Numbered from the stretch's first letter, positions 12,710 to 61,755 are shown. The stretch: 64,000 nucleotides of DNA from Candidatus Latescibacterota bacterium (GCA_965203175.1 OZ241867.1:6112001-6176000); one strand, 5' to 3'. Translations and numbers: made by a program. The notes: generated by a model not told the origin, from the sequence alone.

Positions 12710-12713
<4 letters not shown>

Positions 12714-15228: not shown

Positions 15229-15231
15229 GAA

Positions 15232-15725: not shown

Positions 15726-15758
15726 AACGTGTAACTAACCGCGAAAAAGGAGTCCTCC

Positions 15759-16097
15759 ATGGAACTGTTGCACGAAAAAACCTTTCCCCCCGATTCTACC
15801 GAGGCCAAAGTCGTGGCCGTGCTCAAGACCTGCTACGACCCCGAGATTCCGGTCGATATCTTTGCCCTCGGCCTGATCTACGATGTCGAGGTCAGCGACT
15901 CTCAGGACGTCCATGTGACCATGACCTTGACCTCGCCTGCCTGCCCGGTAGCCGGCACCCTGCCGCCGGAAATCGAACACAAAATCAAGTCCCACGTCCC
16001 GGGCATCGCCACGGCCTTGGTCGAGGTCGTGTGGGATCCGCCGTGGACGATCGACATGATGACCGAAGGGGCCAAACTCGAACTAGGCATGATGTGA
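15759..16097 (+). CDS. sufT: DUF59/SufT Fe-S maturation protein
   Basis: YDPEIPVDIFALGLIY, MTLTSPACP, WDPPWT. Confidence 0.92.
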   Translation: MELLHEKTFPPDSTEAKVVAVLKTCYDPEIPVDIFALGLIYDVEVSDSQDVHVTMTLTSPACPVAGTLPPEIEHKIKSHVPGIATALVEVVWDPPWTIDMMTEGAKLELGMM

Positions 16098-16098
16098 C

Positions 16099-17396: not shown

Positions 17397-17487
17397 AAAC
17401 CCTCTCATTCTCGGTTGCTCAAGCAATTGCGTACTGCTATACTAGACCCACTCACTAATGCACCCCATCCTTTTCCCGGCCCTTCTC

Positions 17488-18753: not shown

Positions 18754-18754
18754 G

Positions 18755-19564: not shown

Positions 19565-19753
19565 CCGCGTCCGATAGAAACCTGACGAAGCAATCGCGCC
19601 GATGCACACATGAGTTTCTATGTAGCTGGAACGGCAGCGTATGGTTGAGACACGGACATATTGGAGGACGAGGCGTTGCGGGAATTGCTGGGCTCAACAT
19701 GGTGAGCAAGTAACAGTAATGAAAACTTTAACAAAGCTTGAGAAAGGTTTGGA

Positions 19754-20671: not shown

Positions 20672-20727
20672 TTGAACACGTCAATCAACCAAAACCTTCA
20701 ACAAAACCCATAGCTCAGGAAGCCTTC

Positions 20728-32825: not shown

Positions 32826-32836
32826 GCGTTGCTTCC

Positions 32837-34816: not shown

Positions 34817-34957
34817 CGGTGCGCGTGCCATCACGCCCTCCAGGTTGAACGGCACTCAATATTATAATGCAATGCGCAACGGCAAGCTATTGACGCGAGC
34901 GCGTCCTGCTCCCTTTATATGCCAACCTATCCAACCCCAAACAAGGAGCTTTTCCAC

Positions 34958-37675: not shown

Positions 37676-37786
37676 GGATGGAGCGGAGGCGCAATCTATC
37701 GAAAAACCTCTTGTGCTGTCAGGCCGTATATACTATAGATGCTTCTCTGCATTTGCCAGTAAGCTCCATTGACGAAAGGAAGTGCA

Positions 37787-40038: not shown

Positions 40039-41940
40039 ATGAGATTCTTGAAAAGTATTACTATCGGGGCTGCATCCCTGCTGCTTGCGGCAGGAACGGC
40101 CAGCGCCCAGTTCGTCCATGCTGGTAACCCCGATGTTACTAGCCTCGCCGATATGACCAGCGGCGGCAGTCCTACGGTCCTAGAGATTGAAGGCTTGGCG
40201 GATGTATCCAACTACGCGTTCGATGGTTCAGACCTAGAAATCCCTTTTACCCTTTCGGGTAGCGGCGCCACGGTCTGGCTGATCATCTATCATGCTGACG
40301 CGAGTCCTCCCTTGACCATTACCGGCGAAGGGCCAGCGCCCTATAACGATCCCGAACATCCCGATCCGGGCTGGCACGTGTACGAAGGGGTCAATCCCTT
40401 GGTGTTCAAGTCCAACGGCGAGCGCTTTGAAGAAGGCGACAACGCCATCGTTTGGAACGGCCACGACAACGACGGCAATGTGGTGCCCGCAGGAAGCTAC
40501 AAGCTGTTCCTAGCCGCCTTTGACGACGAAGCCGCACCCCATCTGGTGGCCGGTGCCGTCTTCCGCAAACTGGGGACTCCGGGTCGCTTCATCATCGACA
40601 CGGCCAACAACCGCGTCTTCGACCATACTCGCAACAACAATATGAACAACGACTGGATCGAGAACCTTGAGGGATTCGATCTGATTGACCACACTGCCAT
40701 CATTGATGCGGGCGGTGGCACGCCGCTATCCGGCGTGCCGCTCAACAGCGATATGACCGAGTTCATCGGTATCGGCCAGTCCAACCGCCTCATGCGCTGG
40801 ACCGTGGACTGGGATTCCAATCGCCTCGCTCCGGAGGAGGACTGGGGCATTGATAACGACGCCGAGAACGGCATTATCAACATTGAGGAACTGCCCGGCA
40901 GCCCAGGGCAGCGCACCCTCATCACCAATCCCGACAAGACCGTCGCCTATGTCACCGCCGGCGTGACCGGCACGGTGGCCCAAATCGTCTCCTACGACGT
41001 CGAGACCGGTGCCAAGCTAGACACTTGGGACGTGACCGACCTGTTTATCTACGATAATGCAGGCTCCGACCGCGTCGGTGGGCCGATGGAAACGGCCGCC
41101 TTTTACAATGGCGAGCCCCCTCCCGAAGGCATCACCACTACCTCCCACCACACTTCGTGCATCGTGCGCCACAGCTACAATGGCGATCTGATGTGGATGA
41201 ACCGCAACGGCGACGGCTTTGGCGATACCCGCGCCTTCAATTCGGATGACGGCACGTTTGGCGACCTGCTCTACGGCCATACCGAAGCGCCCAACTTCAA
41301 GTACTCGATTTTCGCCAACAAATGGGGCTGGGTCTCGGTCTGTGAAAACGGCTTGGATAACACCAGTTTCGGGGCCATGCTCGGTGAAGACGGCTCCGGC
41401 CTGTTCAAGTTTGAGCCCAAGGAGGCACCGCTGACTTGGTCGCAGCATGTGGCCGTGGTCGACGAGGGCGACGACTGGGACGGCGTGTACATGATTATCG
41501 GCGGTTTCGGCGATGCCTTGGCTTCCAACGAATGGGTGTCCGAGGATGTCGGCGTAGTGCCGCCCACCCATCCAGTGGCCCAGTTCCCTTATGATCAGAA
41601 GCAGGTGACTTTGGGCTCGGCTGGCACTGCGATTGCAGAGGTGGAAGGTGCTGCTACGCCCAACACTCCTGCTCTGGGTGATGCGTATCCCAATCCCTTC
41701 AACCCCGAAACCACGATTCGCTTCGACCTGCCCTGGCAAGCGCCGATCCAGATCAAGATTTACAACCAGACTGGCCAGTTGGTGCGCGTGTTGGCCAATC
41801 AGGTTATGGGTCCGGGCAAATTCACTGTCACGTGGGACGGCAGGGATGACAGCGGTGCAGAAGTATCCACTGGAGTGTACCTCTACCGGATTGAAGCACC
41901 CAATCTGCAGTTGAGTAAAAAGGTCACATTCCTCAAATAA
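40039..41940 (+). CDS. Secreted protein with N-terminal FlgD-like Ig module and C-terminal T9SS-type-A/FlgD-like domain
   Basis: RBS AAGGAG; signal peptide ASA|Q; WNGHDNDGNVVPAGSY; C-terminal YPNPFNPETTIRF...WDGRDDSG..VSTGVYLYRI...KKVTFLK. Confidence 0.85.
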   Translation: MRFLKSITIGAASLLLAAGTASAQFVHAGNPDVTSLADMTSGGSPTVLEIEGLADVSNYAFDGSDLEIPFTLSGSGATVWLIIYHADASPPLTITGEGPAPYNDPEHPDPGWHVYEGVNPLVFKSNGERFEEGDNAIVWNGHDNDGNVVPAGSYKLFLAAFDDEAAPHLVAGAVFRKLGTPGRFIIDTANNRVFDHTRNNNMNNDWIENLEGFDLIDHTAIIDAGGGTPLSGVPLNSDMTEFIGIGQSNRLMRWTVDWDSNRLAPEEDWGIDNDAENGIINIEELPGSPGQRTLITNPDKTVAYVTAGVTGTVAQIVSYDVETGAKLDTWDVTDLFIYDNAGSDRVGGPMETAAFYNGEPPPEGITTTSHHTSCIVRHSYNGDLMWMNRNGDGFGDTRAFNSDDGTFGDLLYGHTEAPNFKYSIFANKWGWVSVCENGLDNTSFGAMLGEDGSGLFKFEPKEAPLTWSQHVAVVDEGDDWDGVYMIIGGFGDALASNEWVSEDVGVVPPTHPVAQFPYDQKQVTLGSAGTAIAEVEGAATPNTPALGDAYPNPFNPETTIRFDLPWQAPIQIKIYNQTGQLVRVLANQVMGPGKFTVTWDGRDDSGAEVSTGVYLYRIEAPNLQLSKKVTFLK

Positions 41941-42008: not shown

Positions 42009-44147
42009 GTGCGAATCGATATATTCTTTCGCCTGCCAGCGATCCTAATGGCCTTGGCGCTGCTGTGCAGCAGTAGCCTTTCCGCCCAAGACCTCTCGCG
42101 TGCCACTATCTCTAGCTGGCCCACGACTACGTATTATCTCGGCTTTTTCGAATTTGCAAGCAAAACGGACGGTCAGATCCAGATTGTCGCTGGGGGCCAC
42201 TATACCCTCTATCTCAACGGCGATATAGTAGGTAGCGATCAGGGGCCTGACGCGGCACAATCCTACGAAGTTTCCTTTAAGCGCCGGGTAAATCACGTAG
42301 CCGTAACCGTCCAACACGATGGCCGGCAGAGTCCGTACGGACTGTTCTGCGTGCTGAATGGAGGAGAAGAGCATTTTGTCAGTTCGCCCACAGATCGGGT
42401 CAATCCCTGGTTCTGGACCGGCACCCCGCTTCCCAACGAGGAAGATGCGGATTGGATGACCATCCGCCAGAGGGATTTAGGGGATTACGAGGAAAACGGT
42501 GCAGCCGTGCGCTGGCAGCCCGTTCAAGCCGGCAGTCTCGATCCGGGTATCTATGCCGAGTTTGCGGACTTGGATCTGACCAGGAACTGGAGTATGGCAG
42601 GGTTCGCCGGTGGCCTAGCCGGCCATCAAGGCGGATTGCAACTGCGCGATTTGGCCGGCCAGAATATGGCCTTCAATACGCTGTCGACCGAGCCCAACAT
42701 GGTGGACGGCAACCTCAGCACTTCAGTGAATTTTCGCAAGGGAGCCGGTGCGCTTTTACAGAGTGTTGAAACTGATCTAGGCCGCCTTTTCTCCATTGAG
42801 CGGGTGCGGGTAATCACACAGCCCCCTTCGAGTAGAAACAGTTATGAAGATCTTTCGCTGCGCGGGTATAGCATTCTAGTGAGCAAGGACGGGGTCGGAT
42901 TCCTAGAAGTCGGATCGCAAAATCAGATTGCCACGTTTCAGGAGAGCGAAGTGGTCTTTCCACCCGTTCCCGCCCGCCACGTGCGCCTGACTATCACCGA
43001 GTTTTCCAATCGCAATGCTGCGCCGCGGGTGGGCGAGCTAGAAGTCTACGTTCAAGGGCTGGATCAGCAGGGCACATACCGGTCTCCCCCGCTGAATCTG
43101 GGCACCGATGATCTGAAGAATTTTGAACGAGTCCAATGGTTCGGCCAAGTGCCGTCCAACGCGGAAATGAGTCTGCGCTTTCGCAGCGGCGACGATGGCC
43201 AAGTCTGGAGCACCTGGTCGGACTGGTCGCCGGATCTCGACAGACCGCTGGACGTCCCCGAACCGCGCCGCTTCCTGCAATTCGAATCCCGCCTTGCGAC
43301 CCAAGCGTTGACGGAGGGGCCAGTGCTAGACAGCCTAGTTGTCTTCTACGACAGCGGGCCCATCCCGGCCACTCGGGCAGCGGCCTCAATTTTGCCGCTG
43401 CGCACTTCGATTGGCGTGGATACGCTTTTTACCTATACGCTTGAGTTAGACATCGGGGCCGATGATGCCGGGATTGGACGCTTGGCGATTATAACCCCGT
43501 GGCCGGCCAGTCTGGACAGGAACGATGTTCAAGGCCTAGGTGATGCTGGCATTGCCGATGTGGTGGCCAGTAATGACTCCCTAGTGTTGGTCTTCGACCC
43601 GCCTATCACCTCCGAAACCGGCACTACGGAACTGGTCATACCCTTCACTACCCGGCTGCTGGCGGCTAGCCACGCCTTCCAAGGATTGCTTTTTCCGCCA
43701 GATGCAGTTTCCTCGCTGCGGGTCCAAAAGCGCGAGGGCACCGATCCAAATACTGGATTGGCGTATTCCATTACCGCCTCGGCAACCGATTTCGCTATCG
43801 CTATCCTCGACGATGTGAAGGCCTATCCTGCAGCCTTCACGCCTAATGGCGACACCATCAACGACGAAGCCACTTTGGGCTTTGTTTTGGGGCGAGTGAA
43901 TGATGCCCAGGTCCACTTTGAAATCTACGATCTGGGCGGCCGCTTGGTCCGCACTCTCCCTGCACACAAACTCAATGCCGGGAACTATGCGCCTAGAGAT
44001 GGGCTCGACGCGAGTCTGCCTGGTCGCTGGGACGGACGCGGAGATGACGGCGCAGTACTGCCGCCCGGCTTGTACGTGTTTCGCGTTGTCGTAGATCTGA
44101 AACCCGACAAAAAAGTGGGAACGGGCGTTATAGGCCTAGCCTACTGA
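42009..44147 (+). CDS. Secreted protein with F5/8 type C (discoidin)-like domain and CHU_C/FlgD-type CTD
   Basis: Signal peptide LSA|Q; MVDGNLST...ETDLGRLFSIERVRV...ARHVRL...VGELEV; FTPNGDTIND...WDGRGDDG..LPPGLY...IGLAY. Confidence 0.82.
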   Translation: MRIDIFFRLPAILMALALLCSSSLSAQDLSRATISSWPTTTYYLGFFEFASKTDGQIQIVAGGHYTLYLNGDIVGSDQGPDAAQSYEVSFKRRVNHVAVTVQHDGRQSPYGLFCVLNGGEEHFVSSPTDRVNPWFWTGTPLPNEEDADWMTIRQRDLGDYEENGAAVRWQPVQAGSLDPGIYAEFADLDLTRNWSMAGFAGGLAGHQGGLQLRDLAGQNMAFNTLSTEPNMVDGNLSTSVNFRKGAGALLQSVETDLGRLFSIERVRVITQPPSSRNSYEDLSLRGYSILVSKDGVGFLEVGSQNQIATFQESEVVFPPVPARHVRLTITEFSNRNAAPRVGELEVYVQGLDQQGTYRSPPLNLGTDDLKNFERVQWFGQVPSNAEMSLRFRSGDDGQVWSTWSDWSPDLDRPLDVPEPRRFLQFESRLATQALTEGPVLDSLVVFYDSGPIPATRAAASILPLRTSIGVDTLFTYTLELDIGADDAGIGRLAIITPWPASLDRNDVQGLGDAGIADVVASNDSLVLVFDPPITSETGTTELVIPFTTRLLAASHAFQGLLFPPDAVSSLRVQKREGTDPNTGLAYSITASATDFAIAILDDVKAYPAAFTPNGDTINDEATLGFVLGRVNDAQVHFEIYDLGGRLVRTLPAHKLNAGNYAPRDGLDASLPGRWDGRGDDGAVLPPGLYVFRVVVDLKPDKKVGTGVIGLAY

Positions 44148-44283: not shown

Positions 44284-46962
44284 ATGCACCATACTCTCAG
44301 CTATGCCCTTAGCGTTCTTTGCCTGCTGCTAGCGGTTGGCGCTGACCTAGTCGAGGCCCAATTTCTATCGCGGGACTATCGACGCTTGTGGGCCAATGAG
44401 CTGTTTGAAAACTACGGTGCATCGGGCTATCGCGACTATGACCTAGAAGATGAGAATCGCCGCTTCGACCTATTTGGCAACCTACTGATCGATGGCGTCG
44501 ACGTAGTTGAGTACAGCGAAATTCGCCGCGACGCGCCTGGGATTAGGGGCAGTTTTGAATCCCGCAATGCGCGCTACGATCGCTTCTTCCAGAAGCTGAT
44601 CATCGCCAACGAGGGCTTCGGTTCCTGGTCTACCCGCCTGATAATTGGAGACCACATCCGCACCTTTTTCACTCCGATGACCTTGAATCTGCCTAGCTAC
44701 AGCGGCATTCGCTGGGACGGCTCTTCTCGCAAAAGTCGTTTCAGCGTTATTGGCACGCATCTTACCGATCCGGTGCTCGCGTCGGGTTTAGGATCCCTCG
44801 AACAAAACGCAACCCAACGCCGGATCTTTGGTACGAGCCTGTTCGGCGGACACTGGGAGAGCCAGATCGGCGATATCCTTACGATAGGCTCCACCTATGT
44901 CAACGTGCACCGCTTTGACGCCGAAGCCAATGCCAAAACCAACAGCTTGCGAGGCACTGTGCCTCAGGTGATGCAGGACGGCTTGCGCAAGGTATTCGTT
45001 TTTATTAGCGACGATGCACCGTACAGAGGTTCTGGTGCCGAAGTACACCAATTGGACATGTTCGTAAACGACATCCCTGTACTGCCTGTGCGGGTGGGCC
45101 GGATCAACAACCTGCTCGAACACCTCCCAGTGACTACGGATTTGAGCAGCACGATTCTGTTGCAGCCACACGAAATCGGCTATTTACGCCGCAACCGCGA
45201 CTGGCTGCACGCAGTGGTCGATGCCAGCAATACGCCTTTTTTTCGTTCTCTACTGGCTGGTATTACCCAGGACGTAGCCCCCGCGACGCAAGCTGCTCCC
45301 CTTAGCGCCCACGACACGGACGTTATCTATTATGAATATGTCGTGCCTGATACGGTGAGCCGGATCGATTTCAGTGCCGTCGTGGCCAATGACTACAGCG
45401 TCGATGTGGTCGGAGCCGTACAGGTGCCGCTACTGGCACCGGGAGATGACGATTTTTACTACGATTGGCACAATGCGGCACGCGCCGCCGGCCAAGCCGG
45501 CCAGCGCAGCAATTTGCGCCAAATCCAATTCAACTACGGTTTTCCCACTGGCCTCTCGCTACTAGGTCTTAATTTTGCAGCCACCTTTATGGGCTTTCAA
45601 CTGCAGGGAGAACTCGCCCGCAGCACGACCTTTTTCAAGGTGCCCGAAGCCCAAGGCAAGCGCTACAAGCGCGAAAGTTCAATGTATTACGTCAACATGC
45701 TACGTCCTGTATACGACCGGGCAGAGGTGGGCTTCGAGTTGTTCGACGTGCCGCACGACTACACCACAGATTTCTCTTTGTTTTTTTCTTCAAAGGTAGG
45801 CCCCACTGTCGGCGGCCGACTCTACGATTCGTTCGCACTAGTCGAGGATAACGACGACCTAGACGACTGGCCCGACCGGGTAGAGCGCAACGATCCATTG
45901 GCACCGTATTTGAGCGCCAGCGGCCAAGGCCACGGCGTGTATCCCGGCTTCGATCCTGACGGTGACGGCGTCCTCGATTTTAATCTAGACCTGGATCGCG
46001 GCTCCGACGCTACACAGCCCTTTATAGGCTACTACGCTGAACTGCCTAGCTTGGTTTTCGGTGATGATTTCGACAACAACGGCATCGTCGATTTTCGCGA
46101 AAACGACAATCTACCCGATTACCTATATCCAGTGGACCATCGCGGCTTGCATGGTTTTGTCTCGCTGCAACCTACTGATCGCACCCAGTTGCGGCTGGGC
46201 CTATACCGGGTGCGTCAGCCGGCCCTAGGCACGCGCAACCACTCCCGTTATTTGGAAACTCAGTACCAGCGCGACTGGAAAGATTGGGGCTATGTGCGCC
46301 TTAGTTACCGCATTAAGCGGACGCGAGACAACATCCAGAATACGACCTTTTTCCCCACTTCCGATACCACCTTAAGCCCGGACCGACTAGAAAACAGGAA
46401 CAGCCTCAGCAATCAGATCTTTTTTGAGGGAGATCTGACAACTCTGCCGGCGTTGAACATACGCAATATCATCTCCTTTACCCACATCGACCTAAAGGGA
46501 CAAATCCTAGCCGATCCCGTGGCAGCCAAACCGGGCACGATGACCCGTTTTGCCATGGTGAACAAGATCGACTACACCATAAACCGGGGACGTTTCAGCA
46601 TTTTCCCCCAATTCAAGCATATCTACCAGCGGCACAAGTCGCCCGAACTCCAGATCCCGGATGCCCAGAGCCGCTGGCTCATGCCCATTCTGCGCGTGGA
46701 CTATCGGTTGACAGCCAAAACCATGCTCAAAACAGGCATCCAAGGCTTGCCCTTTTGGCACGAGCGTTTTCTCGATGCGGCCCGTCCAGAGAGCGAGTTT
46801 ACGCGGCTGACCTACACGGCATTTTTCCAAAACAAGAGCAATTACCGCGGCTACGACCTGACCATACTGTTGGGAACCTATCATACGACTAAGAAATTCA
46901 CCGGCTCGACCCGGCCCAAAGACGGTTTTCTGGAATATTTCTTTAGGGTCTATATTGGCTAA
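44284..46962 (+). CDS. Large exported hypothetical protein, putative outer-membrane beta-barrel, paralogue 1
   Basis: Signal peptide VEA|Q; alternating beta-strand pattern; Asp-rich insert; motifs shared with the next two ORFs. Confidence 0.75.
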   Translation: MHHTLSYALSVLCLLLAVGADLVEAQFLSRDYRRLWANELFENYGASGYRDYDLEDENRRFDLFGNLLIDGVDVVEYSEIRRDAPGIRGSFESRNARYDRFFQKLIIANEGFGSWSTRLIIGDHIRTFFTPMTLNLPSYSGIRWDGSSRKSRFSVIGTHLTDPVLASGLGSLEQNATQRRIFGTSLFGGHWESQIGDILTIGSTYVNVHRFDAEANAKTNSLRGTVPQVMQDGLRKVFVFISDDAPYRGSGAEVHQLDMFVNDIPVLPVRVGRINNLLEHLPVTTDLSSTILLQPHEIGYLRRNRDWLHAVVDASNTPFFRSLLAGITQDVAPATQAAPLSAHDTDVIYYEYVVPDTVSRIDFSAVVANDYSVDVVGAVQVPLLAPGDDDFYYDWHNAARAAGQAGQRSNLRQIQFNYGFPTGLSLLGLNFAATFMGFQLQGELARSTTFFKVPEAQGKRYKRESSMYYVNMLRPVYDRAEVGFELFDVPHDYTTDFSLFFSSKVGPTVGGRLYDSFALVEDNDDLDDWPDRVERNDPLAPYLSASGQGHGVYPGFDPDGDGVLDFNLDLDRGSDATQPFIGYYAELPSLVFGDDFDNNGIVDFRENDNLPDYLYPVDHRGLHGFVSLQPTDRTQLRLGLYRVRQPALGTRNHSRYLETQYQRDWKDWGYVRLSYRIKRTRDNIQNTTFFPTSDTTLSPDRLENRNSLSNQIFFEGDLTTLPALNIRNIISFTHIDLKGQILADPVAAKPGTMTRFAMVNKIDYTINRGRFSIFPQFKHIYQRHKSPELQIPDAQSRWLMPILRVDYRLTAKTMLKTGIQGLPFWHERFLDAARPESEFTRLTYTAFFQNKSNYRGYDLTILLGTYHTTKKFTGSTRPKDGFLEYFFRVYIG

Positions 46963-46977
46963 TATGGGCGGAATCAC

Positions 46978-49767
46978 ATGAGATTATCGGCTACATTGGT
47001 CCTAGCAGGAGTGATATGGTCTGCCGCTGCCGAAGCACAGCTACTATTCAGACCCGGCGAGCCCTATATCAACTATGCGTACGAAAGTTACCGCAGCTAC
47101 GAAAACCTCATCTTTGGCCGGGACCGCACGCCTCAATTCGACCCCTTGGGCCAGTTCGTGCTGAACGGGGCGACCGTGTTTCAACTACAGGAATTCCGCA
47201 CCATCCGTCCGGCCGCCGGCAGTATCATTGCCAAACCCAGGCTCTACGAGGCCTATCTCAATCGGCTAGTGATCGCCAACGATTCGTATAAAGGTGCCAA
47301 TTCACAGTTAATTGTTGGCGACCGGATTCGCACCAAGTACACCTCGCTGACCCTAGACCTGGCGGCGATGAACGGGATACGTTTGGACACTCATTTCAAG
47401 GGTGGTTCGGTGGTGCTAGCCACATCCAGAGTGGACAAACCTATTTTTGAATCTGTGCTCAACGCCGACCACAGAATTCACGGCACCGAAGGCTCTGAAT
47501 TCCGGCCGCGTTGGAGTACGTATCTGATGTCGGGGGACGTGCGCACTCAATTGCCAGGCCTAGATATGGGCTTGAGTTGGGTCAACCAATATCGCACGGA
47601 CAGTTTTAAAAAGCTTAGCGAAAACAGCTTCAAAGGCACCCTGCCCACAACGGGCAGACCGCCGGAGTGGATTGTGGTGCGCGTATCGGCTCAAGGACCC
47701 GAAGACAATGCGGGCGTACGGGTGGTTCCGCCGGTGCTAACGCTCAATGGACGCCAGATTACCCACGTGTTGGGTCCTTACGACAAGCTAGACACCGAAA
47801 CGCTGACGCTGACGGTTACAGAGCACGAAGATCGGACCATCATTCCGCCCATAACGCGCGACACCAGTAACGATCTTATCATCGATCACCCTCATATCGA
47901 ACCGACACCGCAGGGCTTTTACGAAACCCGAGGCCGGAGCAGTTTGCTATTCTGGTTTAAGGTGCCAGCTTTTTTTGCGGACAACGGCGACACCGTCATC
48001 GTCACCAAGACATATGCCAGCCTAGACGTGGCCGGCGACTACGCGATCGAGCTATCCGAGGTTTTTGACGGCCTCTCAAGGAATCCGGCGACCTATTTCT
48101 ACACTGCGGCCCAGTCGCGCGGCAGGCCAGCTAACCTCAACGACTTCAAACGAGTGCGGGTACATTATGGCCGCCAGACAGGCCGTACTCTTGCCAGCGC
48201 CCATCTAAACTGGGACATTCGCGGCTTCTCACTGAATACCGAATACGTGCGCAATTTCTCGTACCGGGCCTATCCATCTCTAGTAAGTACCAAGAATCGC
48301 CATATGTTAGACCAAAGCCAAGCTTGGTTTGCCGTTTTACGCCGGGATTGGGATAGGTTCAGTATCGGCGGCGAGGTATTTAACGTAGATGGTGAATACT
48401 CCACTGTCTTGACAGTACAGGACGATGATTTCAGGAGTTATTCTGGTTTTCTCACCAGCCCCTTTCAGTTCCCCAATAACTATCACGAACCGCGCCTGCC
48501 CACGTTTATTGGCCCGAACATAGCAGATCAGACCTATACACTCGAATTCAATACCGTGGACGACAACGACGATAAGGACCAGTTCCCCGACTCGTACTTT
48601 CTTCGCCGGACGACAAACCTAGCGACCGGAGGCCGCTTTATCGAAGATCCCGATGGGGTATTCCCGGGACTCGACGCCGATTTGAATGGCCGTCCAGATA
48701 TCAATGAGAACAACAACCAGATCCCCGACTACTTTGAGCCTTTCTTGCTCTACGATGTCAACCCCGACGCCTTCGAATGGGGGGACGACACCAACAACAA
48801 CGGCAAGATCGACGAGCGCGAAAATGACGAAAAGCCAGACTATCCGTACGATGCAGATCGCCGCGGCTTTCACGGTTTTACAACCCTTCTTCTGACCAGA
48901 GCCGTATCTGCAACGCTGGGCCATCACAATACCTGGGCACCTTTCGGGGGCGGTCGGGCAACATCCACCTATGGCAAGGTTGAGTATCGTCGTCGCATCC
49001 CCTTTCTGGTAGACTTGTATGCAGTAGAACGGCTCAAGCGCGTACAGGACGACATTGCCGACGACGTGTTCGGTCTCAGGCGCAGCCCTATCTATTTCGA
49101 GCCCGACGTGATCCCCATCGTAGCGCTGACGGACGAAGAGATTTTCAATCCTCTGGGCGAGGCCGAATTGCTGCAGGATCCGCTGCTGATGCAAGATAGC
49201 TGGGTGAATACGTTTTTTACGCGGACCCGTTTGATATGCGTCCCCAACCTGAATGTAGAACTAACAGTCAAGTACGAGAATAACTTTCAGCAAAGCACTT
49301 CCCTGCAAGCAGACAACAGGATATCCGATCTAGCCACGGTCTTCAAAGCCGACTACCTGTGGAATCCGTGGCGCGAACTGCGGGTAATTCCGCAGTTCAA
49401 ATGGCTGCGGCAACGCTTACAAGACGATGAAAACGCGCTCTTGCCGATCCACGAGAATTTTCTCTATCCCATTTTGCGGCTGGAATATCCGCTTTCCTCT
49501 CGCACGACAATAAAATTGGGAGCCCAAGGCTTTTCGTTTTTCACCAGCAAGTACCGCAATGAATTGACGCCGGAAGCGAATTTTGATTCCGCAGTGTATC
49601 TGCTGCTGTTGAGCAACAATTCTACCTACGTCGGTTATCAGCTCAACCTCAATCTGGGATATGAGAAACGCGTGCGAACATTCCTGGACCAAAAGCGCAG
49701 TATCCAAGATATCGATTTCTCGCGCCTATTCCTGCGCCTGATTGTCGGGTTACGGCCTTTGTATTGA
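46978..49767 (+). CDS. Large exported hypothetical protein, putative outer-membrane beta-barrel, paralogue 2
   Basis: Signal peptide AEA|Q; IVGDRIRTKYTSLTL, DDNDDKDQFPD, GVFPGLD, DERENDEKPDYPY, NNSTYVGY. Confidence 0.75.
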   Translation: MRLSATLVLAGVIWSAAAEAQLLFRPGEPYINYAYESYRSYENLIFGRDRTPQFDPLGQFVLNGATVFQLQEFRTIRPAAGSIIAKPRLYEAYLNRLVIANDSYKGANSQLIVGDRIRTKYTSLTLDLAAMNGIRLDTHFKGGSVVLATSRVDKPIFESVLNADHRIHGTEGSEFRPRWSTYLMSGDVRTQLPGLDMGLSWVNQYRTDSFKKLSENSFKGTLPTTGRPPEWIVVRVSAQGPEDNAGVRVVPPVLTLNGRQITHVLGPYDKLDTETLTLTVTEHEDRTIIPPITRDTSNDLIIDHPHIEPTPQGFYETRGRSSLLFWFKVPAFFADNGDTVIVTKTYASLDVAGDYAIELSEVFDGLSRNPATYFYTAAQSRGRPANLNDFKRVRVHYGRQTGRTLASAHLNWDIRGFSLNTEYVRNFSYRAYPSLVSTKNRHMLDQSQAWFAVLRRDWDRFSIGGEVFNVDGEYSTVLTVQDDDFRSYSGFLTSPFQFPNNYHEPRLPTFIGPNIADQTYTLEFNTVDDNDDKDQFPDSYFLRRTTNLATGGRFIEDPDGVFPGLDADLNGRPDINENNNQIPDYFEPFLLYDVNPDAFEWGDDTNNNGKIDERENDEKPDYPYDADRRGFHGFTTLLLTRAVSATLGHHNTWAPFGGGRATSTYGKVEYRRRIPFLVDLYAVERLKRVQDDIADDVFGLRRSPIYFEPDVIPIVALTDEEIFNPLGEAELLQDPLLMQDSWVNTFFTRTRLICVPNLNVELTVKYENNFQQSTSLQADNRISDLATVFKADYLWNPWRELRVIPQFKWLRQRLQDDENALLPIHENFLYPILRLEYPLSSRTTIKLGAQGFSFFTSKYRNELTPEANFDSAVYLLLLSNNSTYVGYQLNLNLGYEKRVRTFLDQKRSIQDIDFSRLFLRLIVGLRPLY

Positions 49768-49777
49768 GGTGCTCAAA

Positions 49778-52700
49778 ATGGTGTTTAGAGTACTTAGAAA
49801 TATCTTAACGGCGACAAAAATACTCTGGGTAGGTGCCTGTGGACTGGCGCTGCTGTTATTCTTGTGTACCGGTGCTTTTGCCCAAGAGGTTGAGGACTCG
49901 CCCGAACATCCCCGATTAGGTCCGCCGCGCCTGCTTTTGGACCAGCCCTATATAGGGCAATTCGGGCAGGAGTACTATCAGAACTACGGGTTTGAAGACT
50001 ACTCCAGACAACCCCCCACGACCAGCAACCTGCGCAACTTTTACAATTCACTGGGGGATCCGCTCCTGTACGGGACCGAGTCCATCCGCTGGGTGGAACG
50101 CCAAGGGTTGGGCGTGCGGCGCGGCTTCAGTTCCCAGTCAGAGCGTTTCTCGCATGGCCAAGCTCCCGGATCGAGTTATGGCAGTCTTTTCAATTATGTC
50201 ATTGTCGGCACCGACGGCACCGACGCTTGGCAGGCGCGGGCCATCTATGCCAACGAACTGCGCTCGAAATTTACGCCGCTCACATTTAAAATGGCCAATG
50301 TCGATGGCCTGAGAATCGACGTAGGTACGGAACAGGACAAGTTCTCGGCCATAGCCTCCAATTTGGTGCCCAACAATACTTTCATTGTCAATACCATGAT
50401 GCTGGGCACGCACTACGAACGCAAATTGGGCTTCCTCAATTTTGGCACCACCTTTCTCAACGCACACCAGTTCGAACCTCGCATGGAGAGCGGACACCGG
50501 ACACTTAAAGGCGTAGTAGGCGCAGTGCAGCGCTCGACCGCCCTAGTGGCCATCCGCATTTCGGATGGTTCGCCGCAGGACGGCAGCGGCGGTCCAGTGC
50601 TGCATGGGGTCAAGGTATTCGTCAACGGCATTCACAGGCCCGAAGCAGACCCCTTCGTCATCCGTCTGCGCGCGCGCGGCGCTGAGCGTCAAAGCTATAT
50701 GGCCGGTCTGCTGCGCAGCGGCGACCGTCGGCCTTTGCCGGAGTTGGACAACGACTACCAAGCCATCAATCGGGGGGCAGTATGGAACACCTACGATCCG
50801 TACATCAACTACGCCTCTTTTGACACCGATGTATTCTATCGGGGGTACGAGTTCCCCTTCTGGATTGATCATCTCTTCTACCGGGATTTCAAGCTCTACG
50901 GTGCCGATCATGTGCTCAACGCCGACGAGGAGATCAGCGTCAACTCCGAATTCGCCCACGAACTGAGCGAATTCGACCCCACGACCAACCCAGAAGGCCA
51001 GTTTCTCGGACTGCATACTCTGGCCGATCTACCACAGACGTTCGACGGTGAGGAGTACGGCATCCTCTATGTCGATCTGGAACCGTTCCAAGAACAGATC
51101 ACTTCGGTGAATATCGAACTAGCGCTGGCCAATGACTACCATGTCGAGGTGTCTGAGATCGACCTATCAGGCGAGGCCGGAGATATGCCCAATCCCAACT
51201 ACAGGGACCGCTACAATTATGCGACCTTTTTCCGCACTGTGGCCACAACACCGGGCAACCCGCAAGATGGCCGGGTTCGGACCGTGCGCGTCAAGGTGGG
51301 TGCCCCTACCGGCTTGAGCATCTATAGCGCCAATGTATACGGCGTTTTAAAGGGGTTTGAAATAAACGGCGAGTTCAGCCGCAGCAACAGCTTCTACCAA
51401 TATGCCAGCGGCATGCCCGCCCCGCGCGTACCCTCCGAAGCACTCAGCGTCAATGCCCTTAATCGCGAACAGTTTCCGGGGACCCGCTCCACCATCGCCG
51501 ACAATGCCTATTACTTGACGATTAAACGCGACTTCGACCGCTTGGGCTTGGGGGCTGAATTGTTTTCCATGGGCGCACTCTACAACACGGAGTTGCGTAC
51601 CTACATAGGCCGCAGTGAAAACAATTTCGGCAGCTTGGTTGCCTACAATAATGTGTACCTACACCGCCTAGTCGAGGACAACGACGACAACGACCGCTAT
51701 CCAGATAGTTGGTACACCAACAGACCGACCATATTCCAGGGGCAATCCGACATCGACGGCATCTTTCCCGGGCTTGATGAGGACCGAGACGGCATACCCG
51801 ATACCAACAGAAATTTCAATGGTACTCCGGATTACCTCGAACCGTTCCTCATGTACGATTCCGATCCCCAGGTCTACGACTACGGCCTTGATCTCAACCA
51901 CAATGACTTTATCGACGTACGCGAAAACGACATCCAGCCGGACCTCCCCTACGATCCCGGGTTGCGAGGCCGCCATCTGTACGGGACTTGCGAGCCCATC
52001 CACAGGGCGCGTATAACATTGGGAGTCATGGACGCGGAGCAAATTGCGGCCAATGACCCCAGCGATTTTTACTACGGCAATCTGGGATACGAGCGGCAGA
52101 TACCTGCGCTAGGTCAATTCTTTGGCGTGCTGTCGGTAGAACGAGTGGAAGATGGCGTAGCCGACCCCCTTAGCATCTACAGCGACGAGGTGCTCACCCC
52201 TGCCCAGCAACTTGATCGCGAATTTGCCGGTTTACAGCGCAATATACAGCTCTCCCCTTTCTTGGAGGAACCGCGAGACGATCCACTGCTGTTCAAGAAC
52301 AGCACCTACACCCGGATGTTCGTCGATGCCCGCTGGAAGGCCGTGCCAAACCTGAAAGTCCACAACAAAGTCAAGTACGAGATCAATTCGCAGCACGAAG
52401 GCGAACTCTACGATGGCACCTTCCAACAAGGCAATCGCTTGTCTCGTCTAACCATGGTCCACAAGGCGGATTACCTGTGGCAGATAAGGCCTCGACTCGG
52501 TTTATTTTCCGGTCTTAAGTTTCGCTATCTCAAAGAGCGGCAAAAAACAGATGACCTGACCACGGCGCAAGAGCGCCATATCATCCCGCTGCTGAAACTG
52601 CAGTACGAACTGACGCTGAGGACGCGTTTCCAGCTCGGTATTCAAGGGCTTGGCATGGCTTTGCCTTATTCTGTGACCGATGAAATACAGCCAATAAACG

Positions 52701-52891
52701 ACTTTGAACAGTACGACGCAGTGTTGATGATGACGAACAATTCCCAGTATTTCGGTTACATCATTTCCACCAACGCGGGCATCGGTCGCCGCGTCAAGAA
52801 ATTCGACGATCCAACTCGGGGTGAGACAAAGGACGAAGATTTCACCTCCGCTTTTATTAATGTGATCCTAGGATTCGTAGATGAAACCTAA
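49778..52891 (+). CDS. Large exported hypothetical protein, putative outer-membrane beta-barrel, paralogue 3
   Basis: RBS GAGGT; signal peptide AFA|Q; EDNDDNDRYPD, GIFPGLD, DVRENDIQPDLPY, NNSQYFGY. Confidence 0.75.
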   Translation: MVFRVLRNILTATKILWVGACGLALLLFLCTGAFAQEVEDSPEHPRLGPPRLLLDQPYIGQFGQEYYQNYGFEDYSRQPPTTSNLRNFYNSLGDPLLYGTESIRWVERQGLGVRRGFSSQSERFSHGQAPGSSYGSLFNYVIVGTDGTDAWQARAIYANELRSKFTPLTFKMANVDGLRIDVGTEQDKFSAIASNLVPNNTFIVNTMMLGTHYERKLGFLNFGTTFLNAHQFEPRMESGHRTLKGVVGAVQRSTALVAIRISDGSPQDGSGGPVLHGVKVFVNGIHRPEADPFVIRLRARGAERQSYMAGLLRSGDRRPLPELDNDYQAINRGAVWNTYDPYINYASFDTDVFYRGYEFPFWIDHLFYRDFKLYGADHVLNADEEISVNSEFAHELSEFDPTTNPEGQFLGLHTLADLPQTFDGEEYGILYVDLEPFQEQITSVNIELALANDYHVEVSEIDLSGEAGDMPNPNYRDRYNYATFFRTVATTPGNPQDGRVRTVRVKVGAPTGLSIYSANVYGVLKGFEINGEFSRSNSFYQYASGMPAPRVPSEALSVNALNREQFPGTRSTIADNAYYLTIKRDFDRLGLGAELFSMGALYNTELRTYIGRSENNFGSLVAYNNVYLHRLVEDNDDNDRYPDSWYTNRPTIFQGQSDIDGIFPGLDEDRDGIPDTNRNFNGTPDYLEPFLMYDSDPQVYDYGLDLNHNDFIDVRENDIQPDLPYDPGLRGRHLYGTCEPIHRARITLGVMDAEQIAANDPSDFYYGNLGYERQIPALGQFFGVLSVERVEDGVADPLSIYSDEVLTPAQQLDREFAGLQRNIQLSPFLEEPRDDPLLFKNSTYTRMFVDARWKAVPNLKVHNKVKYEINSQHEGELYDGTFQQGNRLSRLTMVHKADYLWQIRPRLGLFSGLKFRYLKERQKTDDLTTAQERHIIPLLKLQYELTLRTRFQLGIQGLGMALPYSVTDEIQPINDFEQYDAVLMMTNNSQYFGYIISTNAGIGRRVKKFDDPTRGETKDEDFTSAFINVILGFVDET

Positions 52892-56159: not shown

Positions 56160-56177
56160 GTGGAAGGTCGCATAACA

Positions 56178-56738
56178 ATGGAAATGCGTTTCAAACAACG
56201 CTGGCACTTCGTTATTCTGGGTAGTGCCTTGATACTGGCCTCTAGCCAGCTTCTCCATGCCCAAGCAGGGACGGATAACCAGCCCAAGGCGACCGCTATA
56301 TCTCATTCTCAGGCCATCGCCCTTTCGGTCGCCTTTCCGGGTTTGGGACAACTGGCTGCTGGGCATCGAATCAAGGGCACGGCACTAGTGGCAACCGGTA
56401 TCGCAACTATAGTGGGGTGGCTCACATCGCACGCTGATTACAATACGCAGACCAATCAGTTTGCCTTAGAAAAAGAACGCTATCTTTCGCTGCAAAACGG
56501 AGGCTCCTTTGACGCGGCGGAAAAAAGCTGGCGACGGCTCGGCAACTTAAAATCCGATCTGGACGGCTCCCATATCCGTCGCCGCTTATTCGGCGTCTTA
56601 GCCGTGGGTGTCTACGGCTACAATTTGCTCGATGTCCTGCTGTTAGATGGAGCGTCTCCCGCTGCGAAGCGGCGAATGCGCATCGCGCCATTGCCACAGA
56701 CCAGAACATCAGGCGTCTTACTGGTTGCCCAGTTTTAG
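56178..56738 (+). CDS. DUF5683-like membrane or exported protein
   Basis: Signal peptide; ALSVAFPGLGQL; VYGYNLLDV; C-terminal ...LLVAQF. Confidence 0.65.
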   Translation: MEMRFKQRWHFVILGSALILASSQLLHAQAGTDNQPKATAISHSQAIALSVAFPGLGQLAAGHRIKGTALVATGIATIVGWLTSHADYNTQTNQFALEKERYLSLQNGGSFDAAEKSWRRLGNLKSDLDGSHIRRRLFGVLAVGVYGYNLLDVLLLDGASPAAKRRMRIAPLPQTRTSGVLLVAQF

Positions 56739-57175: not shown

Positions 57176-58411
57176 ATGGTCTCAGACCTAGGCCGTTTTC
57201 AAGCGCCAAGTGATCAGTTAAACTTTAACCGCCTCCTGCGGGAAACCCTCAAATACACCGTCTGGGGGTTACTCATCGGTGCGGGACTGATCGCCGGGGT
57301 CTTCGTCTATTGGCTATTGAGTGTCGAGGAGCGCGACGCGCCGGAACCGGCGTTGACCCGACTCATCATTCGCAAACCTAGGGCGACCAAGACTTTTGCG
57401 CTCAAGCGTCAACGGCTCCGGCCACGAGCCCTCACCAAACAGGTCACGGCACTCAAGCCGCGGCTGTCCACGCCGGCGGCTCCGCGCCTCAAAGGCTCCA
57501 GTGTTTTCGGCAATGTCCAGACGTTCGAATACGCCCTGCAAGCAGACGTGCCAATCAACCTGAAGACTAGCTCCATCGAATTGTCCGCTGCTAAGATCAC
57601 CGGCACCAAAGATCCGGAGAAGCGCATTGCCATGCGCGAGGAATTGATCGATCTGAACGCGCTGGATACGGGTAAATACAAGGGTCTCATCATCCAGGAC
57701 CCGACCGACCGCCGCAAAGTCAAGGGGTTCGTCTATCTGGGTACGGCTTGGGCCAACGACCTAAAGCCAACGTTTGACAGCGCTGCCAAGGCCATCCCCA
57801 ACCTAGTCGACGCCCTCAACGAACAGACGGGCATCTCGGCCAGAGTGGACGCGCATTTATTTATCGATTCTCAAGAACTGTTTCGCACGCCTTTTGTATA
57901 TATCACCGCTACTGAGGCCTTTGAACTGACGGAACGCGAACTAGAGAATCTAGGGAAATATTTGCGGCAGGGCGGGTTCATCTTCGTCGACAATGCCAAT
58001 CCCACCACAGAATTCAGTCAGGGGGAGGCGTCTCTGCGACGCATCTTCCGCGGTGCCTTAGGGGCGCAAGGCCAACTGCGGCCCATTTCCAACAACCATC
58101 CGATCTACCACACCTTTTACGATTTTGACGGCCCGCCAGTGGGTTCCGAACTGGAGATTCCCAGCTTCTCCGAACAGCGCAGCCTTGACCACTTAGTCAT
58201 CGCCGAGCAATCGTATTACCTAGAGGGTGTTTTCCTAGATGATCGCCTGGTAGCCATGTACTCCGACAAGGGATACGTCCATACTTGGGCACGCAATTAC
58301 GGCAATGAACCACAGTTGCGATTTGGCATCAATGCCGTCATTTTTGCCCTGACGCAGGAAGGATCTATCGCCCAGCAGCAGATTGATTTCTTCAGTCAAC
58401 GGGGCCAATAA
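57176..58411 (+). CDS. Membrane-anchored DUF4159 protein
   Basis: TM helix, K/R/P-rich linker, then PFVYIT, LGKYLRQGGFIFVDN, NHPIYHTFYDF, GINAVIFALT. Confidence 0.85.
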   Translation: MVSDLGRFQAPSDQLNFNRLLRETLKYTVWGLLIGAGLIAGVFVYWLLSVEERDAPEPALTRLIIRKPRATKTFALKRQRLRPRALTKQVTALKPRLSTPAAPRLKGSSVFGNVQTFEYALQADVPINLKTSSIELSAAKITGTKDPEKRIAMREELIDLNALDTGKYKGLIIQDPTDRRKVKGFVYLGTAWANDLKPTFDSAAKAIPNLVDALNEQTGISARVDAHLFIDSQELFRTPFVYITATEAFELTERELENLGKYLRQGGFIFVDNANPTTEFSQGEASLRRIFRGALGAQGQLRPISNNHPIYHTFYDFDGPPVGSELEIPSFSEQRSLDHLVIAEQSYYLEGVFLDDRLVAMYSDKGYVHTWARNYGNEPQLRFGINAVIFALTQEGSIAQQQIDFFSQRGQ

Positions 58412-60154: not shown

Positions 60155-60901
60155 ATGTGGGAAATAATTCAAAGTGGCGGACCGATGATGGTGCCCCTCA
60201 TCGCCTGTGCGATTCTAGCCCTTGCCTATTCGATTGAACGCCTGTGGATCTTCAGTCAATTGCCCACCTCGGAAGAAGCCCAAACTGAGCTCGATCGGCT
60301 CGAAACCGCGCTGCGCAACCGCGGCGAACAAGCCGTCGTCGAAGAGTGCAACCAAGGCAAGGGGCTGCTCAATTACGTCTTTGCTTCGCTGTTGAAACGA
60401 TACGATACGCTGATGATCGAACAGCGGGAATTCAAAGACACCAACGAGGAGATCATCCGGCTAGCCGACGCCGGCGGCGGCGGGCAGGTCAGCCGGTTTA
60501 TGGTCATGCAGCGGGAACTGGCCGATCTCAAAGACGAACTGGTCATTCAGACCGAGGCTGCCGCCCGAACCTATTTGGGCAAGAATCTGGCGATCCTGAA
60601 TACCATCGGCAACATAAGCCCCTTGCTGGGCTTGCTCGGCACCATTATGGGGATGATCATCGCCTTTGAGTCCATCGCCACCGCCGGGGCCGGCGACCCC
60701 AAAGTCGTCGCGGGCGGTATTTCCCAAGCTTTGGTCACCACCGCATCGGGGCTGATCGTGGCCATCCCAACGATTGTCTTGTATCGCTATCTAGCGCGCA
60801 AAGCAGACAATCTACTCGAAGACGCTGAGATGTACGGCCATGCCTTTGCCAATGCGCTGATCACGACCGGACAGCGCCAACAATACGAAACGACCGAGTA
60901 G
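60155..60901 (+). CDS. exbB: MotA/TolQ/ExbB proton-channel protein
   Basis: GGPMMVPL..., ISPLLGLLGTIMGMI, GISQALVTTASGLIVAIP. Confidence 0.93.
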   Translation: MWEIIQSGGPMMVPLIACAILALAYSIERLWIFSQLPTSEEAQTELDRLETALRNRGEQAVVEECNQGKGLLNYVFASLLKRYDTLMIEQREFKDTNEEIIRLADAGGGGQVSRFMVMQRELADLKDELVIQTEAAARTYLGKNLAILNTIGNISPLLGLLGTIMGMIIAFESIATAGAGDPKVVAGGISQALVTTASGLIVAIPTIVLYRYLARKADNLLEDAEMYGHAFANALITTGQRQQYETTE

Positions 60902-60925: not shown

Positions 60926-61342
60926 ATGGCTAGACATCGCAAAGATCGTCCCGAGAGCTTTCTGGCCGAAGGCGGTCCGGATATGACGCCTTTGATCGAC
61001 TGCGTGTTTTTGCTGCTGATTTTTTTCATGGTCACCACGGTGTTTCTCCACACCAAAGGGCTAGAAGTGGACATGCCAGCCCAAAGCGAGGCTACGGAAG
61101 AAAAAAAGAAAGATATCAACGTCTTGGTCGATCGCGACGGCCAGATTCAGATCAAGGGCGAGGCCGTGCAGCCGACGGCCTTGGCGGCACGGCTGGTCAC
61201 GGCCATGGACGAGGCCAATAACGACAATATCATCATTCAGGCCGACGGCGAGTGCGCTCAGAAACACGTCGTGTTTGTGGTGGATAGAGCCAAGGAGGTT
61301 GGGGTTGAGGGCATCGCTTTTGTGCGGGAACGGGAGGAGTGA
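60926..61342 (+). CDS. exbD: ExbD/TolR protein 1
   Basis: DMTPLIDCVFLLLIFFMV (essential Asp), IIIQADG, VVDRAKEVG. Confidence 0.93.
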   Translation: MARHRKDRPESFLAEGGPDMTPLIDCVFLLLIFFMVTTVFLHTKGLEVDMPAQSEATEEKKKDINVLVDRDGQIQIKGEAVQPTALAARLVTAMDEANNDNIIIQADGECAQKHVVFVVDRAKEVGVEGIAFVREREE

Positions 61343-61755
61343 GTCGGATGCCTAGGCGCAAATCCCTATACGAAGAGCAAGAATTGAACATGACGCCTTT
61401 GATCGACTGCGTGTTTTTGCTGCTGATCTTCTTCATGGTAACCACGGTATTCAAGCAGCCCTACAGTCTGCAGGTCGTATTGCCCGAAGCGCAACAGGGC
61501 GTGATCGTCGAAGAGAAGAAACTAGTCGCCTCGATCACCCAGGACGGCCGCATGGAAATCAACCGCCATCTGGTGACCTTGGACAATTTGGAGCAGGTTC
61601 TGTTGCGGGAAAAAGAAGGCACCCGAAGTCTGACGCTGGTGGTGCGAACCGATCAGGAGACCCCGCATAAGTACCTACTGGATCTCTTCGAGGTGGCTAA
61701 GCGCGTGGGAATTGAAAAAATACCCCTGGCTACGGAAGACCTGCGAGAAAAATAG
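61339..61755 (+). CDS. exbD: ExbD/TolR protein 2
   Basis: NMTPLIDCVFLLLIFFMV, VVRTDQETP, VAKRVGIEKI; start 61339 (GTG) or 61348 (ATG). Confidence 0.93.
   Translation: MSRMPRRKSLYEEQELNMTPLIDCVFLLLIFFMVTTVFKQPYSLQVVLPEAQQGVIVEEKKLVASITQDGRMEINRHLVTLDNLEQVLLREKEGTRSLTLVVRTDQETPHKYLLDLFEVAKRVGIEKIPLATEDLREK

Follow-up and report, generated by a model that had tools for sequence, protein, structure and literature searches.

Three barrel genes in tandem

A 64-kb window of a Candidatus Latescibacterota genome (GCA_965203175.1, OZ241867.1:6112001-6176000; throughout, "the window" is this whole stretch of 64,000 nucleotides) carries, between positions 44284 and 52891, three consecutive genes whose products (P0001, P0002, and P0003; Table 1) are predicted to be very large outer-membrane beta-barrels. 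They belong to a single family, occur together and in a fixed order in most related loci, and lie in a conserved cassette that also codes for surface proteins, a tetratricopeptide repeat (TPR) protein, a DUF4159 protein, and an ExbB/ExbD-type proton motor. The genes are separated by 15 bases (P0001/P0002) and 10 bases (P0002/P0003), and a family profile compared to the window matched these three reading frames and no others.

Pairwise BLASTP comparisons of the three proteins gave expectation values (E) of 3e-76 (26% identity over 973 columns), 5e-54 (24% over 1,033), and 4e-80 (33% over 630), and in a three-way alignment the identity to P0001 was 30% and 27%. They are true paralogs with a similarity far above chance, which bears out the tandem, diverged copies proposed in a first-pass annotation made from the DNA alone. 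The collinear motifs listed there all fall, in the same order, among the invariant columns of the three-way alignment: N43, Y44, and Y49; R126, T130, T133, G141, R143, and D145; V520, D522, N523, D524, D525, D527, P530, and D531; P554, G555, D557, D559, G562, D565, and N567; G593, D595, N599, D603, R605, E606, N607, D608, P611, D612, Y615, R620, G621, and H623; K761, D763, and Y764; G818, Q820, and G821; and N850, S852, Y854, G856, and Y857.

At their N termini the three proteins show a hydrophobic stretch running up to an AxA-Q motif, which we read as a probable Sec signal peptide. At the other end they share a last strand of the form hydrophobic-x-hydrophobic-x-hydrophobic-G, followed by 0 to 5 extra residues, and finish in RVYIG (P0001), GLRPLY (P0002), and GFVDET (P0003). 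These endings had been quoted correctly, but the absence of a terminal aromatic residue that was claimed along with them applies to the first position alone: among complete relatives, a terminal F or Y was found in 0 of 70 proteins at position 1, in 27 of 74 at position 2, and in 17 of 65 at position 3, and P0002 itself ends in Tyr.

Conservation and phylogeny of the trio

When one genome per species was scanned, 215 stretches matched, and the best 80 of them, corresponding to 79 loci, were kept; the numbers of loci per genome given below are thus lower bounds. According to the record labels, nearly all of these loci come from Latescibacterota, with some from Gemmatimonadetes, Myxococcales, Puniceicoccaceae, and Handelsmanbacteria. 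Near-identical cassettes appear under other labels (L015, L017, L019, L025, L055, and others), one protein being labeled Dehalococcoidia, and differences in labeling or binning seem likelier than wide transfer as the source of these off-phylum records.

The order 1-2-3 was found in 65 of the 79 loci, with each gene closest to the window protein in the same position. Together with L035, in which all three are present in a permuted order (3...1-2), and L071, in which the open reading frame (ORF) calls of the three genes are merged, this makes 67 loci with the complete set; in 10 others, a contig end adjoins the missing gene. The median gap in related loci is 2 nucleotides between genes 1 and 2 and 4 nucleotides between genes 2 and 3. 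Whether homologs always occur in multiples had been suggested as a check in the first-pass annotation, and its outcome is strongly positive, which shows a joint function without proving physical trimerization. The heterotrimer supposed in the same annotation agrees with this genetic pattern.

A FastTree phylogeny was kept small by choosing 21 of the 79 loci, which contributed 60 proteins (58 loci were left out). In it, position 3 formed one clade and position 1 another of 20 rows, both with a support of 100. Position 2 was likewise one clade (support of 100), which also took in the lone barrel of locus L057, attached by a long branch where the base of the clade is unresolved. Since each position has its own clade, the triplication came before the cassette spread, and the recurrence of the same cassette subgroups within each clade indicates that cassettes were copied whole. 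Several copies per genome are indeed found, with at least four loci each in OZ244561.1 (L009 and L036 among them) and the RKRN01 assembly and at least three each in OZ252098.1 and OZ242361.1. L007 and L008 have an extra position-3 barrel at their upstream edge (3-1970 and 1-1956, respectively), some 5 kb ahead of the following trio, which hints at a tandem arrangement of two cassettes. The complete chromosome OZ241362.1 has 96% identity to the window's trio locus.

Predicted fold and structural neighbors

AlphaFold2 models cover P0001 and P0002, and for these two of the three proteins the membrane-type beta-barrel supposed at the outset is predicted with good confidence. The P0001 model, based on 87 more diverse sequences, has a mean pLDDT (predicted local distance difference test) score of 85.6 and a predicted template modeling (pTM) score of 0.86, while that of P0002 (40 sequences) has values of 73.8 and 0.77, with low confidence at residues 27 to 95 and in most of an Asp/Asn-rich insert (see below). 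The signal peptide is the sole long helix in either model. From the DSSP strings, the same 22-strand topology can be read in both, with all 10 periplasmic turns short (2 to 5 residues) and the remaining connections ranging from 3 to about 200 residues. The long inserts are found in loop 3, which is a beta-rich and poorly conserved domain (P0001, 213-411; P0002, 209-390), and in loop 5, which contains the Asp-rich segment (P0001, 490-618; P0002, 482-627). Outer-membrane barrels usually have short periplasmic turns and long outer loops, and because of this rule, both inserts would be located on the outer side or folded back into the lumen.

Foldseek comparison to the PDB gave Deinococcus SlpA as the top match for both models (8ae1_A; E of 1.6e-9 for P0002 and 2e-7 for P0001), next related SDBC entries and MtrB (6r2q_B; E of 1.4e-7 and 6.9e-7), and then, at 1e-6 to 1e-3, LptD, OmpG, SprA, ushers, and TonB-dependent transporters. 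The TM-scores were low, at 0.18 to 0.23 to SlpA, no higher than 0.35 to MtrB (normalized to the target), and no higher than 0.30 to TonB-dependent transporters, so that the matches say "large outer-membrane barrel" and little beyond.

The position of SlpA at the top of both lists brings up a first alternative, namely, that the barrels are divergent members of the SlpA/OmpM group, structural trimers of high abundance by which the outer membrane is fastened to the cell wall. SlpA is reported to combine an SLH domain and a long coiled coil with a barrel of 28 or 30 strands that forms a homotrimer with Asp-bound metal sites (PMC9388160). In line with such an origin, 11 of 59 family members (3/5 and 8/51 relatives) have matches to SlpA_C (PF21620) in the same region of the profile (positions of about 200 to 314 of 656), at 16.7 to 30.2 bits. 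None of the 11 reaches the cutoff of 35 bits, P0001 to P0003 gave no SlpA_C match at an E of ≤1 and no SLH domain in the Pfam scan, and there is no coiled coil. The 22 strands read from the DSSP strings would not agree with 28 or 30, and the TM-scores to SlpA are those given above. Two profiles of the whole family compared to PDB sequences retrieved only chance rows (E of ≥0.058), with no SlpA chain at an E of ≤10. Membership in the SlpA family was rejected on account of the absent SLH domain and coiled coil, the apparent misfit in strand count, and the SlpA_C cutoff that is never reached, and we consider this alternative very improbable. A very remote common origin of the two barrels is possible.

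Family membership

P0001 to P0003 belong to no curated Pfam or NCBIfam family, in agreement with the proposal that they represent a new one. Pfam returned only Uroplakin_II at chance level (E of 0.13) and NCBIfam returned no match; Plug (PF07715) and TonB_dep_Rec (PF00593) were found neither in the three proteins (E of ≤1) nor in 51 relatives (E of ≤0.05). A word-indexed search with P0002 retrieved 57 proteins, 13 of them named, and a profile search retrieved 51, of which 10 were named. All the named ones are "hypothetical protein," those of the first search coming from metagenome-assembled genomes of Latescibacterota/Latescibacteria or Gemmatimonadetes. When P0001 was compared by HMMER to 1.84 billion cluster representatives, 434 clusters were found at an E of ≤1e-3, 264 at ≤1e-10, and 120 at ≤1e-30. 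An Atlas search with P0002 gave Latescibacterota "hypothetical" clusters and one weak lead to DUF6029. The family is found so far almost only in Latescibacterota genomes. In the literature on the Latescibacterota envelope and on DUF4159 (subscription journals were not covered), we found no description of the barrel family or its cassette, and the available part of a 2015 Latescibacteria paper mentions only nonspecific porins and Plug-domain receptors (PMC4454575). The barrels are a new family within a known kind, the outer-membrane barrels, with an unusual conserved three-gene organization and cassette context.

The Asp/Asn-rich insert

The insert is located within a few codons of where the first-pass annotation had placed it in each of the three genes (Table 1). 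Its richest 110 residues contain 26 to 31% Asp plus Asn, versus 13 to 14% for P0001 to P0003 overall. An alignment of the three window inserts with 27 segments from related loci (30 diverse inserts in total) had 21 invariant columns, and in an alignment of 87 sequences that included all three paralog classes, 23 of the 100 insert columns were conserved at ≥90%, versus 26 of 792 elsewhere. The Asp-rich segment is the best-conserved portion of these proteins, the opposite of the pattern usually shown by outer loops.

Two 12-residue loops in each protein fit the pattern D-x-[DN]-x-[DN]-[GD]-x-hydrophobic-[DE]-x-x-polar. Judged by the ligand positions 1, 3, 5, 9, and 12 and the Gly at position 6 of the EF-hand or DxDxDG calcium loop, an established concept, each of the three proteins has two such loops. 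P0003 has Asp instead of this Gly in its second loop. At position 12, the canonical Glu is found in every second loop and, among the first loops, in that of P0002; the first loops of P0001 and P0003 have Leu and Arg there, respectively. Across the 30 diverse inserts, the columns of these loops belong to those with no or almost no variation, and a third acidic cluster, V-[ED]-D-N-D-D-x-D-x-x-P-D, is found upstream of both loops. In the P0001 model, the insert (residues 519 to 618) has a pLDDT of about 80 to 94 and is mostly coil with short helices. The second loops end in Glu like a canonical EF-hand loop, although the flanking helices of an EF-hand are missing from the model.

The insert had been described as a calcium loop similar to thrombospondin type 3 or DxDxDG. 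The second half of this description agrees with the pattern found in all three proteins, and DxDxDG/EF-hand-like calcium loops are a reasonable reading at the level of the motif. The first half is not supported. Pfam scans of the excised inserts (E of ≤10) gave EF-hand_1, Imm75, EF-hand_8, and DUF7151, all far below their cutoffs, with no TSP_3 row, and a profile of the 30 inserts had no match among PDB sequences at an E of ≤10. An Atlas search with the insert gave no usable match.

The cassette around the trio

The trio is flanked by genes on the same strand that recur in the related loci (Table 1), as counted within a flank of 10 kb and with a floor of 150 amino acids (aa) per ORF, which limit the counts, while shared domains inflate those of the tailed proteins. 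Two secreted proteins are encoded upstream. The first (633 aa) has a type IX secretion system (T9SS) sorting domain, with Pfam matches to FlgD_ig (64.5 bits), CHU_C (33.8 bits), and Por_Secre_tail (27.1 bits), and has a homolog in 59 of the 79 loci. The second (712 aa; homologs in 70/79) matches F5_F8_type_C (35.3 bits) and FlgD_ig (27.2 bits) and stays below the cutoff for the type B sorting domain, TIGR04131 (17.5 versus 35 bits). Downstream, the 1,080-aa TPR protein (58/79) has YbgF-type repeats in NCBIfam (220.7 bits) and falls short of the PorW/SprE model (107.9 bits versus a cutoff of 250). Homologs of the 311-aa secreted protein occupy the same downstream spot in window-type cassettes, except in L010. 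The set is closed by a proton channel, which is below the cutoffs of all the TolQ and ExbB models in NCBIfam, and two ExbD/TolR-family proteins.

The same parts, in permuted orders, were recovered when four paralogous cassettes (L036, L038, L053, and L054) were scanned with Pfam. In the L038 type, an F5/8C gene (L038, 12616-14700) is located between barrels 2 and 3, with the TPR and DUF4159 genes upstream, and in the L053 type, TPR, DUF4159, and 252-aa-like genes are found between barrels 2 and 3 (L053, 12683-18455).

Table 1. Barrel genes, their inserts, and other genes of the cassette (window coordinates)
Feature	Coordinates	Strand	Remarks
Barrel paralog 1, P0001, 892 aa	44284..46962	+	From ATG 44284; longest ORF from GTG 44224
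Barrel paralog 2, P0002, 929 aa	46978..49767	+	
Barrel paralog 3, P0003, 1,037 aa	49778..52891	+	ATG 49778 after GAGG; longest ORF from TTG 49742
Asp/Asn-rich insert, paralog 1	45826..46155	+	EF-hand-like loops at residues 557 and 595
Asp/Asn-rich insert, paralog 2	48544..48876	+	EF-hand-like loops at residues 566 and 604
Asp/Asn-rich insert, paralog 3	51656..51979	+	EF-hand-like loops at residues 667 and 705
Secreted protein, 633 aa, T9SS type A sorting domain	40039..41940	+	TIGR04183, 34.6 bits (cutoff 23)
Secreted protein, 712 aa, F5/8 type C domain (discoidin, lectin-like)	42009..44147	+	FlgD_ig/CHU_C-like tail
TPR protein, 1,080 aa	52917..56159	+	Hydrophobic N terminus; many Pfam TPR families
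DUF5683-like small protein	56160..56738	+	25.9 bits, just below cutoff of 26.7; homolog in 35/79 loci
Putative lipoprotein, 123 aa	56763..57134	+	Weak fibronectin type III (Pfam fn3, 22 bits; cutoff 25)
DUF4159 protein	57176..58411	+	N-terminal membrane helix, basic linker, C-terminal DUF4159 (106.3 bits); homolog in 61/79 loci
Putative lipoprotein, 252 aa	58420..59178	+	No Pfam or NCBIfam match; homolog in 52/79 loci
Secreted protein, 311 aa	59187..60122	+	No Pfam or NCBIfam family; homolog in 19/79 loci
MotA/TolQ/ExbB-family proton channel	60155..60901	+	Pfam MotA_ExbB, 100.2 bits
ExbD/TolR-family protein	60926..61342	+	Pfam ExbD, 101.4 bits
Second ExbD/TolR-family protein	61339..61755	+	Pfam ExbD, 101.7 bits

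The tailed proteins upstream of the trio point to another possible role, that of outer-membrane anchors or export partners in the manner of PorP/SprF, with no transport or energy coupling involved. One or two proteins with FlgD_ig/CHU_C tails and an F5/8C domain are found beside the barrels in the four further paralogous cassette subtypes examined and in 59 to 70 of the 79 loci, and the 633-aa protein passes the TIGR04183 model. PorP/SprF-type barrels are encoded beside type B cargo and are about one third of the size of the window barrels. The latter are thus far larger and match no T9SS family, the 712-aa protein misses the type B model, and three fixed paralogs together with the TPR, DUF4159, and ExbB/ExbD genes would be left unexplained. 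We regard such an anchoring role as improbable.

The motor genes suggest, instead, three independent and noninteracting transport barrels, relatives of TonB-dependent importers with no plug or a mini-plug, that are kept together by coregulation and a shared ExbB/ExbD. This would fit the 22 strands read in the P0001 and P0002 models, the ExbB and two ExbD genes of the same operon, the presence of TonB-dependent transporters (SusC among them) in the Foldseek matches at an E of about 1e-3 to 1e-4, and the Atlas lead to DUF6029 ("TonB-dependent receptor-like beta-barrel"; 0.90, 166 shared features), which is a lead only. Several cassettes per genome, as in polysaccharide utilization loci, and nearby sulfatase, GH4, and 3-keto-disaccharide hydrolase genes point in the same direction. 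However, Plug, TonB_dep_Rec, and TonB_C were found neither in the barrels (E of ≤1) nor in their neighbors (E of ≤0.01), and the TM-scores to TonB-dependent transporters do not exceed 0.30. Gains and losses of independent barrels should also occur one at a time, yet each position is an orthologous clade present in nearly every cassette. We therefore consider independent transporters rather unlikely.

Other genes in the window

Just upstream of the cassette there are two more secreted proteins with FlgD_ig/CHU_C tails, one of them with F5/8C domains (30486-32957 and 32837-34855, both on the minus strand). Adjoining it are a DUF6785/DUF6784 membrane protein (35690-37675, minus strand) and a transglutaminase-core protein with a hint of BNR (37769-39871, plus strand), each with homologs in 13 of the 79 loci, paralogous cassettes included. 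A Bat/MoxR-like set (2-7869, plus strand) consists of DUF4175, TPR, HEAT/PhyH, MoxR-type AAA_3 ATPase, and DUF58 proteins; elsewhere, such sets are often accompanied by DUF4159 proteins. PhyH-type dioxygenase domains recur in the window (4078-5889 and 18536-19564), and in L036 one is found inside the cassette, between the TPR-side genes and DUF4159 (20072-20902).

An 848-aa SufB/SufD-type protein (7950-10496, plus strand) has LAGLIDADG_3, Hint_2, and Intein_splicing matches between SufBD_N and SUFBD_core and looks like a SufB with an inserted intein that includes a homing endonuclease. Between it and the remaining suf genes there is a 354-aa ORF with no Pfam match (10713-11777), and at 10001-12000 the GC content falls to 0.46 versus about 0.55 to 0.63 in the surroundings.

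A proposed energized outer-membrane platform

The explanation that we favor, with a probability of roughly 55%, is that the three paralogous barrels cooperate in what is most likely a 1:1:1 hetero-oligomeric platform, within a conserved, multicopy cassette that includes ExbB/ExbD. P0001 to P0003 would be Sec-exported outer-membrane barrels of 22 strands (by the DSSP reading). The N-terminal segment of each is short and conserved, the beta-rich loop 3 is variable, and the Asp/Asn-rich loop 5 is strongly conserved. The two EF-hand-like sites in loop 5 most likely hold Ca2+ and stiffen the loop, which might be placed in the lumen or where subunits meet. Within the cassette, the platform would represent the outer-membrane portion, the other parts being T9SS-sorted surface proteins (one of them lectin-like, with the F5/8C domain), the 1,080-aa TPR protein in the periplasm, the DUF4159 protein anchored in the inner membrane, and the ExbB/ExbD proton motor, to which the TPR and DUF4159 proteins may link the barrels. 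As to its job, our best guess is that a polymeric substrate is captured or handled, with an input of energy, at the cell surface, each copy of the cassette perhaps being dedicated to its own substrate or surface partner. In its multiple copies and in the sulfatase, GH4, and 3-keto-disaccharide hydrolase genes close by, the cassette resembles a polysaccharide utilization locus, which may point to uptake over motility.

Several observations weigh against this platform. Regarding the structure, the models cover two of the three proteins, DSSP strings are the source of both the strand count and the side assigned to the inserts, and most of the insert in the P0002 model has a pLDDT of <50. Neither the whole proteins nor the inserts had a Pfam EF-hand or TSP_3 match at the cutoff; EF-hand_1 appeared on one insert only (E of 0.13; 12.3 bits versus a cutoff of 25.4). 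Regarding gene content, scans of the window cassette gave no TonB, Plug, TonB_dep_Rec, or SusD-like domain, and an ExbB homolog is inside only 19 of the 79 loci, although the 10-kb flank hides more; these 19 represent four or more cassette subtypes. As for the trio itself, 17 of the 65 ordered triplets have more than 500 nucleotides between barrels 2 and 3, with other cassette genes inside, so strict translational coupling is not universal. The congruent clades could also be explained by linkage and en bloc duplication alone. L072 has two barrels with 10 kb of room downstream, and L057, with space to either side, has a single one (9944-12949) in a cassette that is similar in other respects.

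The neighbors of the L057 barrel (6243-20324) comprise F5/8C, TPR, DUF5683, ExbB, and DUF4159 genes. This locus fits a path from homo-oligomer to hetero-oligomer, although its placement in the tree is no proof. A fuller version of the favored explanation can be put forward tentatively, as a possibility on the doubtful side. It would be an envelope-spanning machine in which a heterotrimer of calcium-stiffened, 22-strand barrels is coupled to ExbB/ExbD by the TPR and DUF4159 proteins, replacing TonB, and presents or operates lectin-like proteins delivered by the T9SS. The machine would have been amplified into several diverged copies within each genome, comparable to the polysaccharide utilization loci of Bacteroidota, and would have arisen from an ancestor with a single, presumably homo-oligomeric barrel as in L057.

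Latescibacterota are widespread and uncultured, and the workings of their cell surface are poorly understood. Ordered trios of ~900-residue barrels next to a proton motor are a concrete candidate for new energy-dependent work at the outer membrane. If the platform is real, it would be a further energized outer-membrane design beside TonB-dependent transport, SusCD transport, and the Agl-Glt machinery, and would illustrate clearly how gene triplication can lead to a hetero-oligomer. Structure prediction, heterologous coexpression, and metatranscriptomics find defined targets in the cassette, and hundreds of "hypothetical proteins" could be annotated through it.

Comparison with known systems

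TonB-dependent transporters and SusCD have 22 strands, the number read from the DSSP strings of the window barrels, and resemble the latter in the adjoining ExbB/ExbD, the many diverged copies, and the neighbors that bind glycans at the surface; they are among the weaker Foldseek matches (8a9y, 6zlt, and 8p97). They differ in that Plug, TonB_dep_Rec, and SusD-like matches are missing from the window set, its operon has no TonB gene, and there are three barrels instead of one.

SlpA is, like the window barrels, a very large single-chain outer-membrane barrel, with the difference that it is the homotrimer of one gene, in contrast to three distinct paralogs. Its Asp-coordinated metal sites occur both in the pore insertions and where the subunits meet (PMC9388160). 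SlpA is a precedent for Asp-bound metal that fixes pore insertions or subunit contacts.

The third comparison is with the Agl-Glt machinery of Myxococcus xanthus, whose barrels are much smaller than about 900 aa. According to its description, GltA, GltB, and GltH are three porin-like outer-membrane barrels purified as one heterocomplex, the TPR proteins GltC, GltD, and GltE join the barrels to the TolQR-like motor AglRQS, and a surface adhesin is held (PMC11761067). The window cassette resembles it in gene content only: three barrels, large TPR proteins, a MotA/ExbB-type motor, and a surface protein. In place of the TonB-like GltG/J and the vWA adhesin of Glt, it has DUF4159 and T9SS-tailed F5/8C proteins. 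We see in this a resemblance of design and not membership, with Agl-Glt probably the nearest known design to the barrel trio and its cassette.

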